Shown: positions 44,711 through 48,779 of the stretch, piece after piece
Numbering within the stretch: position 1 is the first letter of the stretch
Layout: the number at the start of each line of letters is the position of its first letter
Notes under the pieces: model-generated
Databases searched by the model: none
What the model was told of the DNA's origin: nothing
What the model saw: only the letters and a program-made list of their open reading frames with translations
Assembly (NCBI RefSeq): GCF_044324785.1
Contig: NZ_CP172127.1
DNA from: Escherichia coli
Lineage (GTDB): Bacteria; Pseudomonadota; Gammaproteobacteria; Enterobacterales; Enterobacteriaceae
DNA: 64,000 bases
Reading direction: 5' to 3' (one strand)
Position numbers and translations under genes: made by a program

Positions 44711-45787
44711 ATGAAATTGACGCTAAAAAACCTTAGCATGGCGATCATGATGAGTGGAATGATCATGGGAAGCAGTGCAATGGCGGCGGATAGCAACGAA
44801 AAAATAGTCATCGCCCATCGCGGTGCCAGTGGTTATTTGCCGGAGCATACGCTGCCAGCAAAAGCGATGGCGTATGCGCAGGGAGCGGATTATCTGGAAC
44901 AGGATTTGGTGATGACCAAAGACGACCATCTGGTTGTTCTGCATGACCATTACCTCGATCGTGTTACTGATGTTGCCGATCGTTTCCCGGATCGGGCGCG
45001 CAAAGACGGTCGTTACTACGCGATAGATTTCACGCTGGATGAAATTAAGTCGCTGAAATTTACCGAAGGTTTCGATATTGAAAACGGTAAAAAAGTGCAG
45101 ACTTATCCGGGGCGTTTCCCAATGGGTAAGTCCGACTTCCGGGTGCACACCTTTGAAGAAGAGATTGAATTTGTTCAGGGGTTAAATCACTCTACCGGGA
45201 AAAATATCGGTATCTATCCAGAAATTAAAGCGCCGTGGTTCCATCATCAGGAAGGGAAGGATATTGCGGCAAAAACGCTGGAAGTGCTGAAGAAATATGG
45301 TTACACCGGTAAGGACGACAAAGTTTATTTGCAATGTTTTGATGCCGATGAACTGAAGCGTATTAAGAATGAGCTGGAACCTAAAATGGGCATGGACCTC
45401 AATCTGTTACAGCTGATTGCCTATACCGACTGGAACGAAACTCAGCAGAAACAACCGGACGGAAGCTGGGTTAATTACAACTACGACTGGATGTTTAAGC
45501 CGGGGGCCATGAAACAGGTGGCGGAATATGCTGATGGTATTGGCCCGGATTACCATATGTTGATTGAGGAGACATCGCAGCCGGGTAATATCAAACTCAC
45601 TGGCATGGTGCAAGATGCTCAGCAGAATAAACTGGTAGTGCATCCTTATACCGTGCGGTCAGATAAACTGCCTGAATACACTACTGATGTGAATCAGTTA
45701 TATGATGTTCTGTATAACAAAGCGGGTGTAAATGGGCTGTTTACTGATTTCCCTGATAAGGCAGTAAAATTCCTTAATAAAGAGTAA
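44711..45787 (+). CDS. glpQ: Periplasmic glycerophosphodiester phosphodiesterase, 358 aa
   Basis: ATG for MKLTLKNLSMAIMMSG (signal peptide) within track ORF 44654..45787. Confidence 0.94.
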   Translation: MKLTLKNLSMAIMMSGMIMGSSAMAADSNEKIVIAHRGASGYLPEHTLPAKAMAYAQGADYLEQDLVMTKDDHLVVLHDHYLDRVTDVADRFPDRARKDGRYYAIDFTLDEIKSLKFTEGFDIENGKKVQTYPGRFPMGKSDFRVHTFEEEIEFVQGLNHSTGKNIGIYPEIKAPWFHHQEGKDIAAKTLEVLKKYGYTGKDDKVYLQCFDADELKRIKNELEPKMGMDLNLLQLIAYTDWNETQQKQPDGSWVNYNYDWMFKPGAMKQVAEYADGIGPDYHMLIEETSQPGNIKLTGMVQDAQQNKLVVHPYTVRSDKLPEYTTDVNQLYDVLYNKAGVNGLFTDFPDKAVKFLNKE

Positions 45788-45806
45788 TGCTACTGCAGGA
45801 TGGCGT

Positions 45807-46706
45807 TCATGCGCCATCCTGTCTCATATCAAATTTTCCACTCTCCACTAATTGTTCTGTGCACATTTGTAGTAAAAACAGTGGACTGCCTTCTACCGGC
45901 TTTTCTTTAGCCAGCAACGAAATCTGTCGATAGAAGGTTGGTTCGAGAGGAACGGAACACAATTCACCTGCAATGGTTTTCAGCGTTAACTCTGGTAATA
46001 AGGCGATGCCTAATCCCTGTCGAATAAAACTGATCGCTGTATCCGGGTGATTAAATTCATATTTTATCTGTGGGGTAATATTCTTTTCTTTAAATAGTGC
46101 CATAATGCTTAATTCATAGCGTCCTTTACTAATAATTAATGGTTCACCCATTAACTCTTCCACTGTAATAGTGCTGTTTTTTGCCAGAGCATGGTCGGGC
46201 GGTAACACTACGGTGAATTTATCCTGATAAATGGGCACGGAGTACATTCCGCTCACCGGAAAATGAACAAAACCGGCATCAATGGATTCATTCTGAAGGG
46301 AATCAATAATCGCTGTGCTATTTTCCTCAAAAGGAATAATTTTTATATTCGGATGATGAATTTCAAAGTAGCGAATCACAACCGGTAAGATACAGGCGCA
46401 GACGCTGGGGAAACAACCAAGTCTCAGCGTTCTTTGAGGGTTCTGCTTTTCCTGCTCGGCTATCTCTTTTACTGCGTTCACTTCCCGATTAATGGCGCGC
46501 AGATGATGCACAATACGATGACCTGCTGCGGTCAGTTGTATAGCTTTACGGCGATCGCGTAACAGTATATTCACGCCAAGTTCTTGTTCGAGGGCAGCAA
46601 TTGCCTGACTTACCGCCGACTGCGTCATGAACAATCGCTTGCTGGCTTCAGTAAAGCCACCGTAATCCAGCACGGCGAGTAAAGAATTTATTTGGGTAAG
46701 AGTCAT
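45807..46706 (-). CDS. LysR-family transcriptional regulator, 299 aa (intact)
   Basis: N-terminal HTH (FMTQSAVSQAIAALEQELGV) and LysR substrate-binding domain; divergent from the MFS gene. Confidence 0.85.
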   Translation of the reverse strand: MTLTQINSLLAVLDYGGFTEASKRLFMTQSAVSQAIAALEQELGVNILLRDRRKAIQLTAAGHRIVHHLRAINREVNAVKEIAEQEKQNPQRTLRLGCFPSVCACILPVVIRYFEIHHPNIKIIPFEENSTAIIDSLQNESIDAGFVHFPVSGMYSVPIYQDKFTVVLPPDHALAKNSTITVEELMGEPLIISKGRYELSIMALFKEKNITPQIKYEFNHPDTAISFIRQGLGIALLPELTLKTIAGELCSVPLEPTFYRQISLLAKEKPVEGSPLFLLQMCTEQLVESGKFDMRQDGA

Positions 46707-46707
46707 T

Positions 46708-46723
46708 AGAGTTTGCTAATCAA
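46708..46723. promoter_or_regulatory. Candidate LysR-type binding palindrome immediately upstream of the LysR gene
   Basis: ATTAG-agtttg-CTAAT inverted repeat in the divergent intergenic region. Confidence 0.4.
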
Positions 46724-46857
46724 TAATATTAAAACGATTAATTTCTCTAATAGCATGCCGCCATTTATACTTCTGTTCTGTAAAGTACATCACAATTTGA
46801 CGCAACCGCAGTAACGGGAGTGTTGTCTGCGTGCGTCATCCTGACAGGCGGTAGGGT

Positions 46858-48048
46858 ATGAAAGAGAAGTTATGGACGAAGGGTTTTTGGGCAATAACCA
46901 TCATCAGCTTTATTATTTTCTTCGTCTTTTATGTTTTACTAACATTGTTGCCAATTTATATCTCTGACCGCTTGCATGCCTCTCCTGATAAAGCCGGTTT
47001 ATTGGTGACTTTATTTTTAATTGCCGCCATTGTTATTCGCCCATTTGCCGGGCAATGGGTGGGTAAATACTCGAATAAAACTATTCTGGTGCTCTCTTCT
47101 CTGGCCTTTTTATTGGTCACAGCGTTGTATCCTTTTTGCCACTCAATTGAATCACTGCTTTTTATTCGGGTGCTTCATGGTATTACCTTCGGGGTTATCA
47201 CTACGGTAAAAGGAACGATTTCCGCGCGGCTGATCCCGGCCTCCCGACGTGGGGAGGGCATCAGTTTTTTCTCTCTGGCAATGGGGCTGGCGATGGTGGT
47301 CGGGCCGTGGATTGGCCTGAATATGGCGCGCTGGGAGGCCTTTAATATGGCTTTCTGGTTATGCACCGGCGTGGCAGCGGTGGGGATTATTCTGTCGCTG
47401 ATTATGACAGTGCCGCCGGTTATCAGCCATGCTGATGGTTCAACGCCGAAAATGGGCTTCGCCGCCATGTTCGATCGCGCGGCGTTGCCATTTGCGATGG
47501 TCACCTTTTTTATGACCTTTTCGTATGCCGGGGTTTCTGCTTTTCTGGCGCTTTATGCACGCGAACTTAACCTGATGTCGGCAGCCAGTAATTTCCTGCT
47601 TTGCTACGCTATCTTCCTGATGATCTGCCGTACCTTTACCGGCAATGTCTGCGACAAAAAAGGACCGAAATATGTGGTTTACCCTTGCCTTGTGTTCTTT
47701 ACGGTAGGACTGGTGGTTCTCGGCTACACCCAGGGAAGCATAATGATGGTTGTTTCTGGCGCGTTGATTGGTATCGGGTATGGTTCCGTGACGCCAGTTT
47801 TTCAGACGCAGATTATCAGTTCAGTGGAACCGCATAAAATCGGTGTCGCAAACTCCCTCTTCTTCAATGCGATGGATGCAGGCCTGGCGCTGGGAGCCTG
47901 TGTGATGGGGATGATGGTTGCACATACTGGCTACCGAATGATTTATCTGCTGGGTGCACTATTAGTGGTAGTGGCTGGTGGAGTCTATGCGCTGCAAATG
48001 AAGGGTAAAAGCGGTGTCGCGCTAGTAGTGGCAAAAGAAATTCATTAA
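46858..48048 (+). CDS. MFS transporter of unknown substrate, 396 aa
   Basis: 12-TM-like hydrophobic profile; divergently paired with the LysR regulator. Confidence 0.85.
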   Translation: MKEKLWTKGFWAITIISFIIFFVFYVLLTLLPIYISDRLHASPDKAGLLVTLFLIAAIVIRPFAGQWVGKYSNKTILVLSSLAFLLVTALYPFCHSIESLLFIRVLHGITFGVITTVKGTISARLIPASRRGEGISFFSLAMGLAMVVGPWIGLNMARWEAFNMAFWLCTGVAAVGIILSLIMTVPPVISHADGSTPKMGFAAMFDRAALPFAMVTFFMTFSYAGVSAFLALYARELNLMSAASNFLLCYAIFLMICRTFTGNVCDKKGPKYVVYPCLVFFTVGLVVLGYTQGSIMMVVSGALIGIGYGSVTPVFQTQIISSVEPHKIGVANSLFFNAMDAGLALGACVMGMMVAHTGYRMIYLLGALLVVVAGGVYALQMKGKSGVALVVAKEIH

Positions 48049-48128
48049 TACGACACGTTTCATTAAGATTTTTCGCAGGTAACCACCTATAGTCATTGTC
48101 GTTAATAAAAAATGACAGGCGATAGGGT

Positions 48129-48779
48129 ATGGCAGTTTCAGCAAAGCACGACGAATTTAATCACTGGTGGGCAACAGAGGGCGACTGGGTTGAAGAGCCT
48201 AACTATCGCCGTAATGGTATGAGCGGGGTGCAATGCGTCGAGCGCAACGGCAAAAAGCTATATGTAAAGCGCATGACGCATCATCTGTTTCATTCCGTAC
48301 GTTATCCGTTCGGCCGACCAACGATTGTCCGTGAGGTTGCGGTAATTAAAGAACTGGAACGGGCCGGTGTCATCGTGCCGAAGATCGTTTTTGGTGAAGC
48401 GGTGAAAATTGAGGGGGAATGGCGCGCGTTGCTGGTGACTGAAGATATGGCGGGGTTCATCAGCATTGCTGACTGGTATGCCCAGCATGCAGTAACGCCC
48501 TATTCTGACGAAGTACGGCAAGCCATGTTGAAAGCAGTGGCGCTGGCGTTTAAGAAAATGCATAGCGTTAATCGTCAGCATGGCTGTTGCTATGTTCGCC
48601 ATATCTATGTGAAAACAGAAGGTAAGGTAGAAGCTGGATTTCTTGATCTGGAGAAAAGTCGTCGCCGCTTGCGTCGCGATAAAGCGATTAATCATGACTT
48701 CCGCCAGCTGGAAAAATATCTGGAGCCGATCCCCAAAGCGGACTGGGAGCAGGTGAAAGCGTATTACTACGCCATGTAA
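48129..48779 (+). CDS. inaA: Kdo/WaaP-family lipopolysaccharide kinase InaA, 216 aa
   Basis: ORF track; translation recognised as InaA. Confidence 0.9.
   Translation: MAVSAKHDEFNHWWATEGDWVEEPNYRRNGMSGVQCVERNGKKLYVKRMTHHLFHSVRYPFGRPTIVREVAVIKELERAGVIVPKIVFGEAVKIEGEWRALLVTEDMAGFISIADWYAQHAVTPYSDEVRQAMLKAVALAFKKMHSVNRQHGCCYVRHIYVKTEGKVEAGFLDLEKSRRRLRRDKAINHDFRQLEKYLEPIPKADWEQVKAYYYAM

Follow-up and report, generated by a model that had tools for sequence, protein, structure and literature searches.

O-island 97 of Escherichia coli looks like an ancestral enterobacterial LysR regulator–transporter module lost from K-12 and most sequenced genomes

Introduction

In a 64-kb stretch of Escherichia coli DNA (the whole of which is referred to here as the window), an intact LysR-type regulator gene and an intact MFS transporter gene lie divergently at a position where K-12 has no intact pair. 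Does this arrangement represent an accessory module gained by some strains, or an ancestral locus that others have lost, and what might the pair do? A pair of this kind has been described in E. coli O157:H7 EDL933 as O-island 97 (OI-97), comprising z3494 (MFS_YfcJ) and z3495 (LysR) (Wang et al. 2024, PMC10819331). In that study, which reported on EDL933 only, Z3495 was found to activate LEE virulence genes via rcsF, at which its binding was detected by EMSA and ChIP-qPCR; deletion of z3495 reduced LEE transcription, HeLa adherence and mouse colonisation, whereas deletion of z3494 gave no phenotype in the published assays (PMC10819331).

Results

The pair is the strain's copy of O-island 97

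The original prediction of an intact divergent pair between glpQ and inaA, encoding a 299-aa LysR-type regulator and a 396-aa MFS transporter, was confirmed in its coordinates by the open reading frame (ORF) list and by Pfam searches. The regulator gene occupies positions 45807-46706 on the minus strand and the transporter gene positions 46858-48048 on the plus strand, diverging from a 151-bp spacer. The left flank is formed by glpQ (glycerophosphodiester phosphodiesterase; 44711-45787, plus strand), for which the RefSeq annotation gives an identical arrangement, and the right flank by inaA (48129-48779, plus strand), likewise supported by both the ORF list and RefSeq. The regulator possesses the architecture of a LysR-type regulator (LTTR) of ~300 aa, with an N-terminal winged HTH (HTH_1; residues 3-63, 66 bits against a cutoff of 26.6) and a C-terminal LysR_substrate domain (residues 88-267, 126 bits against a cutoff of 28), and the transporter matches MFS_1 over residues 14-336 (199.6 bits against a cutoff of 33.4; E = 9e-59).

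Amino-acid identity to the O157:H7 copies is 97.9% for the LysR protein and 98.7% for the MFS protein. The z3495 primers of Table S3 in PMC10819331 match the window at 46704-46744 and at the start of the ORF, and the z3494 primers from the mutagenesis and complementation set of the same paper likewise match the window sequence. The pair is the strain's copy of OI-97, comprising orthologues of Z3495 (LysR) and Z3494 (MFS) of EHEC O157:H7; it is an ordinary regulator/pump pair and a system already named and described. The module had originally been taken to be uncharacterised, a view that has to be given up in part because the pair is O-island 97 and its regulator is the subject of a 2024 paper that assigned it a function; K-12, in which an intact pair would equally have spoken against the prediction, does not carry one. 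ECs3124 and ECs3125 were considered as names for the pair and rejected, as they correspond to glpQ and glpT. Literature searches found no papers on STM2280/STM2281 or ECs3121/ECs3122, and only incidental mentions of yfaH.

The O157:H7 locus resembles that of the window in its position between inaA and glpQ, in its divergent layout, and in the operator boxes described below, which show no differences; over aligned positions 46692-46800 the two are identical but for one base downstream of the boxes. It differs in a 1.7-kb AT-rich insert between glpQ and the regulator, absent from the window and containing an orphan 356-aa ORF that matched no Pfam or PADLOC family, and in a regulator allele of 292 aa rather than 299 aa.

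Two conserved boxes occupy the divergent spacer

The palindrome originally predicted at the regulator start, ATTAG-N6-CTAAT, proved exact. Designated Box 1 (46705-46720; ATTAG-AGTTTG-CTAAT) and proposed to be a high-affinity LysR site, it overlaps the regulator start codon (CAT at 46704-46706 on the plus strand) and has its centre at about -65 relative to the predicted start of MFS transcription. Its dyad spans 16 bp, compared with 15 bp for the canonical T-N11-A. The window contains a single exact copy of the palindrome; when one mismatch was tolerated, two matches were found against 1.16 expected by chance, a count that is not significant by itself, and the case for Box 1 as a genuine site therefore rests on conservation. 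The arms are invariant, around a variable 6-nt spacer, in E. coli, E. albertii, Salmonella, Citrobacter, Klebsiella and Kluyvera; Pluralibacter has one changed base in the left arm and Leminorella two.

Box 2 (ATTAAAACGATTAATTTCTCTAAT, 46728-46751) includes a canonical T-N11-A dyad, ATTA-N7-TAAT (46737-46751), preceded by an ATTAA half-site (46728-46732). No other part of the spacer is as well conserved, Box 2 being nearly invariant across nine sequences from eight genera, including Leminorella. The T-N11-A box was overlooked by the original prediction, and is better conserved than the palindrome at 46705-46720. A divergent partner gene and a T-N11-A dyad between the two genes, as is typical of LTTRs, are thus both present at the locus. 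Both boxes have been kept in eight genera amid a diverging spacer, even in Leminorella, where the pair is found in another neighbourhood. From this observed conservation of the operator we infer its function, and the conserved layout is consistent with the autoregulated LysR module originally proposed.

In a weighted hexamer scan, the top promoter candidates of both strands overlap the boxes; their positions are consensus predictions. The candidate -10 of the LysR promoter (TATTAT, 46723-46728, minus strand) lies between the boxes. The predicted MFS promoter (46743-46771, plus strand) comprises a weak -35, TTCTCT (46743-46748), within Box 2, a 17-bp spacer, and a -10, TATACT (46766-46771); it scores 10.0 against 6.4 for the runner-up, and most other genera have a -10-like hexamer in the corresponding alignment columns. 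A strict consensus promoter and terminator scan of the spacer found no match and no consensus sigma-70 promoter, as would be expected given that an activator-dependent promoter is proposed. Downstream of the predicted -10, an ATCACA element (46789-46794) is identical in 9/9 aligned sequences, and an Rfam scan that included it matched no family. A riboswitch or other known RNA in the spacer and 5' UTR was considered and rejected, the only match being a sub-threshold chance one to a Drosophila lncRNA model.

The regulator scores below the cutoffs of the best-matching named LTTR families

Among the best 25 NCBIfam matches listed for each protein, the only model to reach its cutoff was the 68-residue YfaH fragment model NF007272 (PRK09729), which matched residues 226-291 of the regulator with 144.2 bits against a cutoff of 139. 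K-12 YfaH is therefore a fragment of this regulator, in agreement with the statement in the original prediction that K-12 has only a degraded remnant, yfaH (b2238), at this locus. The named LTTR equivalogs (GltC, CidR, AlsR, CynR, HcaR, CysB, OxyR and others) all fell below their NCBIfam cutoffs among the best 25 of 54 matches, of which the highest, GltC, scored 127 bits against a cutoff of 350. Source names for more than 200 homologues were all generic.

The 299-aa form results from an A-run shorter by 1 nt (T-run at 45834-45837 on the plus strand), which shifts the last two codons and adds seven residues; the O157 copy and the orthologues of every other genus have 292 aa. RefSeq treats the longer allele as an intact gene. 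The 86 nt across the A-run recur without change in ~600 genomes, many of which may be K-12-type remnants because K-12 retains this segment. Between the convergent glpQ and LysR genes lies a GC-rich hairpin (45796-45821) with a 10-bp perfect stem (CAGGATGGCG / CGCCATCCTG) and a fold energy of -22.5 kcal/mol (z = -6.0); it is probably a bidirectional terminator, and the stop codon of the 299-aa allele sits in its loop.

K-12 and most sequenced E. coli have lost the pair

BLAST breakpoints and junction sequences revealed that K-12 is missing 1,879 bp between two copies of a microhomology, TTTATCTG, located in the window at 46063-46070 (left copy) and 47942-47949 (right copy). What remains is the final 35 codons of MFS and the yfaH pseudogene, which is a C-terminal fragment of the same regulator and is also found beside glpQ; the deletion removed the operator together with the N-terminal ~210 codons of the regulator and ~360 codons from the start of the transporter gene. 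Since K-12 keeps fragments of both genes around the microhomology junction, it is K-12 that has changed.

The prediction that the module is strain-variable was borne out across 5,426 complete E. coli genomes, 1,232 of which have kept the pair. The K-12-type deletion junction was found in 3,119 (57%) and no remnant in 1,057 (19%), such that three states cover 5,408 of the genomes and ~77% are without the pair. The "no-remnant" allele and the O157 1.7-kb insert both part from the window at 45819/45820, and the 71 nt present in the former resemble neither the O157 insert nor the pair. The three allelic states would reflect two independent losses, in 57% and 19% of genomes. The variability represents loss of an ancestral locus, through one shared 1,879-bp deletion and a separate replacement, and not the gain of an accessory module. 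The genome of strain N3 is 100% identical to the window over 45700-48200 and carries ISEc31 within the MFS gene.

The pair is conserved at one locus across enterobacterial genera

Comparison of genomic contexts placed the pair at one locus in seven genera, beside the nrdAB-yfaE operon, with the order glp genes-LysR-MFS-yfaE-nrdB-nrdA repeated in Salmonella, Citrobacter, Pluralibacter, Klebsiella, Kluyvera and E. albertii. Among the taxa examined, inaA occupies the right-flank position only in E. coli, there being no inaA between MFS and yfaE in the other genera. Regulator identity declines from 90% in E. albertii to 81% in Salmonella, ~77% in Citrobacter, 69% in Klebsiella and 61% in Leminorella, a gradient that follows standard enterobacterial taxonomy. 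Relative to Salmonella, synonymous sites are saturated, with divergence no lower than in the flanking genes, and GC content is only mildly low (43% for LysR and 49% for MFS, against 52% for the window). Within E. coli, dN/dS is 0.03-0.07 for MFS and 0.04-0.17 for LysR, and the MFS value relative to Salmonella is 0.06; to judge from these ratios, both genes are under purifying selection. Recent lateral transfer was rejected on the grounds of synteny, graded identity and saturated dS. Given the same locus in several genera together with purifying selection, the pair is taken to be ancestral rather than laterally acquired: it looks like an old enterobacterial two-gene module that has disappeared from ~77% of sequenced E. 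coli, K-12 among them.

Alternatively, Z3495 might be a laterally acquired virulence regulator, gained separately by EHEC/EPEC and ExPEC, whose targets lie elsewhere (rcsF, and through it LEE) and to which the MFS protein is a passenger. The reduced LEE transcription, adherence and colonisation upon deletion of z3495 and not of z3494, as well as the binding at rcsF in two assays, would fit such a regulator (PMC10819331). Against it stand the single locus in seven genera with identity decaying along the phylogeny, the fragments of both genes in K-12, and the retention of regulator, transporter and operator together even in Leminorella, in its different neighbourhood. With respect to rcsF itself, its K-12 promoter fragment has no copy of the operator with fewer than two mismatches, and the published ChIP enrichments are all log2 1.2-1.8, with rcsF named in no row (PMC10819331). 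On balance we judge a laterally acquired virulence regulator to be unlikely. Salmonella, Klebsiella and Kluyvera are not known to carry LEE, which weighs further against it; since the module extends to such genera, the reported control of LEE via rcsF in EHEC cannot be the original role of the regulator.

The transporter is a probable exporter related to YfcJ and YhhS

In the classification of the MFS subfamily by HMM, which the original prediction had proposed as a check, YfcJ/YhhS models score best, and curated cutoffs are not reached, the top NCBIfam matches being PRK05122 (109.1 bits against 374) and PRK12382 (84.5 bits against 364). Among solved structures, NorA and the sugar efflux transporter 6KKI are the closest, and a simple hydropathy scan resolves ~11-12 separable peaks. 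Of antiporter motif C, only the core G149-P150-W-I-G153 is present, in predicted TM5, with the full G-x-x-x-G-P-x-x-G-G pattern unmatched. We consider the protein a probable DHA1-like exporter of the YfcJ/YhhS-like kind, the direction of transport being a guess because scores lie far under the named-subfamily cutoffs and motif C is partial. The "MFS_YfcJ" label used in PMC10819331 is a superfamily-level assignment.

Outside the Enterobacterales orthologues, one protein has 54% identity, after which values fall to 36% or less; the transporter forms a separate, narrow orthologous group. The homologues at 36-37% adjoin TetR or MarR regulators, whereas the sole distant homologue above 50% lies on a low-GC contig beside an unrelated LysR (24% identity). 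Prediction of a substrate from these distant contexts was attempted and rejected, as TetR/MarR neighbours fit efflux generally and not any particular substrate.

Could the transporter instead be an importer, and the pair a substrate-induced uptake module? By analogy with PunR-PunC, a divergent LysR/MFS pair for purine nucleosides in K-12, this might be envisaged; MFS_1 spans importers and exporters, motif C is incomplete, and symporter families (aromatic acid, sialate and galactonate transporters) give weak matches of 30-55 bits. Conversely, every one of the best-scoring relatives is an exporter (the YfcJ/YhhS models, NorA, CntE and the sugar efflux transporter), and no catabolic gene was linked to the pair in nine genomic contexts examined. 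We regard uptake as an improbable function.

Discussion

Taken together, we think it reasonably likely that the window carries a copy of OI-97 which is an ancestral module, and in which a self-repressing regulator induces an exporter. Under this explanation a tetramer of the regulator would bind the conserved ~47-bp operator (46705-46751), made up of the 16-bp palindrome that overlaps the regulator start codon and the T-N11-A box overlapping the weak -35 of the transporter promoter. Occupancy of the operator would repress the regulator's own, overlapping promoter; binding of a small-molecule co-inducer at the C-terminal domain would then allow the regulator to activate the transporter promoter (-10 TATACT, 46766-46771). 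The transporter, a putative DHA1-like proton antiporter of the YfcJ/YhhS type, would in turn export the inducer or a related compound. Negative autoregulation and co-inducer-dependent activation are what we infer from promoter candidates that overlap the boxes. Several observations weigh against this explanation: the ChIP-seq table of PMC10819331 has no peak in the interval from inaA to glpQ, deletion of z3494 gave no phenotype in the published assays, the transporter scores far under the named-subfamily cutoffs, and Box 1 departs from the 15-bp T-N11-A. The ChIP-seq coordinates resemble K-12 numbering, however, and reads may have been mapped to a reference without OI-97.

That the module is instead decaying and non-functional in the window strain seems very improbable: the shortened A-run with its two changed codons and seven added residues, the ISEc31 insertion in strain N3, which is identical across this locus, and the absence of the pair from 77% of genomes could be read as decay, whereas both ORFs are full length, the C-terminal change falls beyond the end of the LysR_substrate match (residue 267), the 299-aa allele is intact in RefSeq with ~600 genomes identical over 86 nt at the A-run, dN/dS within E. 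coli is 0.03-0.17, and the operator equals the O157 copy over 46692-46800 save one base downstream of the boxes.

If the pair is a ligand-inducible efflux module ancestral to E. coli, Salmonella, Citrobacter, Klebsiella and relatives, Z3495 might be its sensor, with the ligand acting as an unrecognised LEE cue where the module has been kept. We offer this as a tentative and rather doubtful proposal, under which the ligand would plausibly be a gut- or host-derived small molecule exported by the pump. Were it true, the two independent losses would point to a genuine ecological divide among lineages, and finding the ligand could reveal an environmental signal into EHEC virulence regulation. The evidence indicates that OI-97 reflects a deletion scar in K-12 and not an acquired island, and the published "horizontally acquired LEE regulator" is to be read differently in consequence. 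The conserved operator at 46705-46751 and the promoter model provide a concrete, testable proposal, and the three-state polymorphism (5,408/5,426 genomes) is convenient for association studies.

Among known systems, PunR-PunC (YdhB-YdhC) and AaeR-AaeXAB of K-12 are divergent LysR-regulator/transporter modules. The pair appears to share their organization, namely a LysR gene divergent from the transporter it should activate and a T-N11-A in the shared spacer. The transporter resembles YfcJ/YhhS proteins, NorA and CntE in its length (~390-400 aa) and in an MFS_1 fold over the whole protein, and differs from the YfcJ/YhhS families in scoring far under their cutoffs.

The gene pair and its regulator allele

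A LysR-type regulator (45807..46706, minus strand, 299 aa) and an MFS transporter (46858..48048, plus strand, 396 aa) lie divergently between glpQ, which ends at 45787, and inaA (48129 to 48779). The ORF list, Pfam matches (HTH_1 at residues 3-63 and LysR_substrate at 88-267 of the regulator; MFS_1, E = 9e-59, for the transporter) and the annotation of RefSeq genomes of like arrangement (glpT-glpQ-LysR-MFS-inaA-yfaE-nrdB) agree on this organization, an ordinary LysR/MFS module that the original prediction described correctly.

The regulator of the window is a 299-aa allele: one A-run has four residues instead of five, and the resulting frameshift falls at the penultimate codon, replacing ‘I-stop’ with ‘FDMRQDGA-stop’. 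The added codons run into the loop of a GC-rich hairpin with a perfect 10-bp stem (45796-45821; -22.5 kcal/mol, z = -6), located where glpQ and LysR converge. A terminator scan missed this hairpin because it has no T-run. The allelic change lies beyond the LysR_substrate match (last residue, 267); the 299-aa form is annotated as intact in RefSeq, and approximately 600 genomes are identical across the 86 nt spanning the A-run. Judging from sequence, we regard this copy of the regulator and transporter as probably functional.

Allele states across E. coli

The original prediction that K-12 retains only a degraded LysR remnant, yfaH, rather than an intact pair was borne out. In MG1655 the yfaH pseudogene (b2238) lies between inaA and glpQ, the NCBIfam YfaH model scores above cutoff on residues 226-291 of the window LysR, and 105 bp of the MFS gene 3’ end are also retained in K-12-type genomes. 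From BLAST breakpoints and the sequence across the junction, the deletion lies between two copies of TTTATCTG (46063-46070 and 47942-47949) and removed 1,879 bp.

Among 5,426 complete E. coli genomes, the pair core was present in 1,232 (1,216 nearly full length), confirming the module as strain-variable, while 3,119 possessed the K-12-type deletion junction and 1,057 no remnant; together these three states account for 5,408 genomes. The no-remnant allele comprises 71 unrelated nt (L004:1620-1692, corresponding to window 45820-48029) from the glpQ hairpin, here in a variant form, to the MFS gene's terminal bases. These nucleotides resemble neither the pair nor the insert described below. The allele is a loss or replacement event separate from the K-12-type deletion. 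Of the same 5,426 genomes, counted irrespective of these states, 1,053, including O157:H7 (L002:1625-3334), carry a 1,710-bp insert of 33.6% GC at window 45819/45820, with the glpQ hairpin on one side and the stop codon of LysR on the other, encoding an orphan, K/N/S/E-rich 356-aa protein with no Pfam or PADLOC family. The hairpin forms the left boundary of both this insert and the no-remnant allele, and strain ACN001 combines the insert with the K-12-type deletion. Strain N3 (CP031609; L019:1959-4411) matches the window at 100% across 45700-48200, with its MFS gene interrupted by the IS3-family element ISEc31, a third, independent route of inactivation.

O169:H41 strain F6326-C1 and around 100 other genomes share a second allele that is deeply diverged (L005:1550-2900). 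Over ~45750-47100, which takes in the glpQ end, all of LysR, the operator and the initial ~80 codons of the MFS gene, it is ~77% identical to the window, about as distant as Salmonella (76%), with flanks 97-100% identical. This pattern suggests an old import or a balanced dimorphism.

Descent across Enterobacterales

The order glp genes-LysR-MFS-yfaE-nrdB-nrdA-ubiG-gyrA is kept in Salmonella enterica, Citrobacter werkmanii, Klebsiella and Kluyvera, and in Pluralibacter and E. albertii up to nrdA, where their loci end. The MFS-yfaE gap is 1-3 bp in Salmonella, Citrobacter, Pluralibacter, Klebsiella and Kluyvera, and 217 bp in E. albertii; since inaA is absent there in all six taxa, its presence between the MFS gene and yfaE represents an E. 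coli-specific addition. Regulator identity to E. coli declines from 90% in E. albertii through 81% in Salmonella, ~77% in Citrobacter and 69% in Klebsiella to 61% in Leminorella, an order that tracks taxonomic distance, and then falls abruptly to below 50%. MFS protein identity declines in a similar pattern. Synonymous divergence from Salmonella is saturated (MFS dS 1.6; LysR dS not computable), no smaller than in the flanking glpQ (1.18) and nrdB (1.24), and the MFS gene shows a dN/dS of 0.03-0.07. Taken together, the synteny, graded identity, saturated dS and two-sided K-12 remnants indicate that the pair probably descended vertically and was lost at least twice in E. coli.

Just one full-length MFS homolog (54%) in a 50%-identity representative library exceeded 50%, all others being at 36% or less. 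The former, the sole homolog between 50% and 80%, resides on a low-GC, Firmicutes-like metagenomic contig (L013:583-2822); there, too, a LysR gene is transcribed divergently from it, encoding an unrelated regulator (24% identity), and the operator is absent from the spacer beside it.

Operator and promoters

As originally predicted, a palindrome, ATTAG-AGTTTG-CTAAT (46705-46720), adjoins the regulator start, its left arm overlapping the start codon. Its count is not significant (2 matches at ≤1 mismatch vs 1.16 expected), and its credibility derives instead from conservation across genera. In an alignment of nine spacers from eight genera, conserved elements stand out from otherwise divergent sequence: the arms of CATTAG-N6-CTAAT are invariant in six taxa, with N6 varying freely and one or two left-arm changes in Pluralibacter and Leminorella, and ATTAA-A-A-N-GATTAATTT-NN-CTAAT (46728-46751) is nearly invariant. 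The latter contains ATTA-N7-TAAT (46737-46751), a canonical symmetric T-N11-A LysR box missing from the original prediction. ATCACA (46789-46794), downstream of the best -10 candidate, is likewise invariant in all nine spacers, and its region has no Rfam match; only in E. coli and E. albertii does it form the right side of a CRP-like TGTAA-N6-TCACA (46779-46794). The Leminorella pair retains the operator in another neighborhood (dsbB, fadR), and thus regulator, operator and transporter travel together.

A strict consensus scan of the spacer found no sigma-70 promoter. A weighted scan gave one clear plus-strand candidate for the MFS gene (-35 TTCTCT, 46743-46748; 17-bp spacer; -10 TATACT, 46766-46771) and a minus-strand candidate -10 for LysR (TATTAT, 46728-46723). 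The predicted start at ~46778 would center the palindrome near -65 and the second box near -34, the usual spacing of regulatory and activation sites for LysR-type activators. The regulator's own promoter would fall under the same sites, and we infer an activator layout with autorepression.

Transporter type

In a subfamily check by HMM, the best NCBIfam models were of YfcJ/YhhS type (PRK05122, PRK12382), with the staphylopine exporter CntE next; each scored far below its cutoff. Of solved structures, NorA and a sugar efflux transporter are closest, and predicted TM5 holds the G149-P150-x-x-G153 core of antiporter motif C, though not the full motif. Given also that the ~36-37% homologs adjoin TetR or MarR regulators, and that no catabolic gene was linked to the pair in any genomic context examined, we favor, with moderate confidence, a putative exporter.

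Comparison with O-island 97

The pair is already in the literature as O-island 97 (OI-97) of EHEC O157:H7 EDL933, a 2,006-bp region of two ORFs, z3494 with an MFS_YfcJ motif and the LysR-type z3495 (Wang et al. 2024, PMC10819331), and can no longer be considered an unnamed system. The reverse complement of window 46704-46744 is the published z3495 knockout primer, the LysR ORF start is the z3495 complementation primer, and the z3494 primer fits the O157 version of the sequence directly upstream of the MFS start; protein identities to an O157:H7 genome are 97.9% (LysR) and 98.7% (MFS).

In that study, deletion of z3495, and not of z3494, lowered LEE transcription, HeLa adherence and mouse colonization, and Z3495 bound the rcsF promoter and not LEE promoters (PMC10819331). 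At zero or one mismatch, the K-12 rcsF promoter fragment contains no copy of the operator. The 97 Z3495 ChIP-seq loci (Supplementary Table S4; log2 enrichment 1.2-1.8) lie mostly inside highly expressed genes. None of the rows mentions rcsF, and no peak falls between inaA and glpQ, i.e. within OI-97. Their coordinates are ~1 kb or less off K-12 numbering and resemble K-12 rather than EHEC (glpQ peak, 2,351,168, vs K-12 glpQ, 2,349,935-2,351,011). Reads may have been aligned against a reference without OI-97, in which case the table cannot speak to Z3495 self-binding.

The same study called z3495 laterally acquired, a reading contradicted by synteny, graded identity, saturated dS and the two-sided K-12 remnants. 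Modestly new here are the apparent ancestry of the module and its loss through a defined deletion, the three-state census, and a testable model of a conserved two-box operator and promoters. The O157:H7 OI-97 locus differs from the window in carrying the 1,710-bp insert, which the window lacks.
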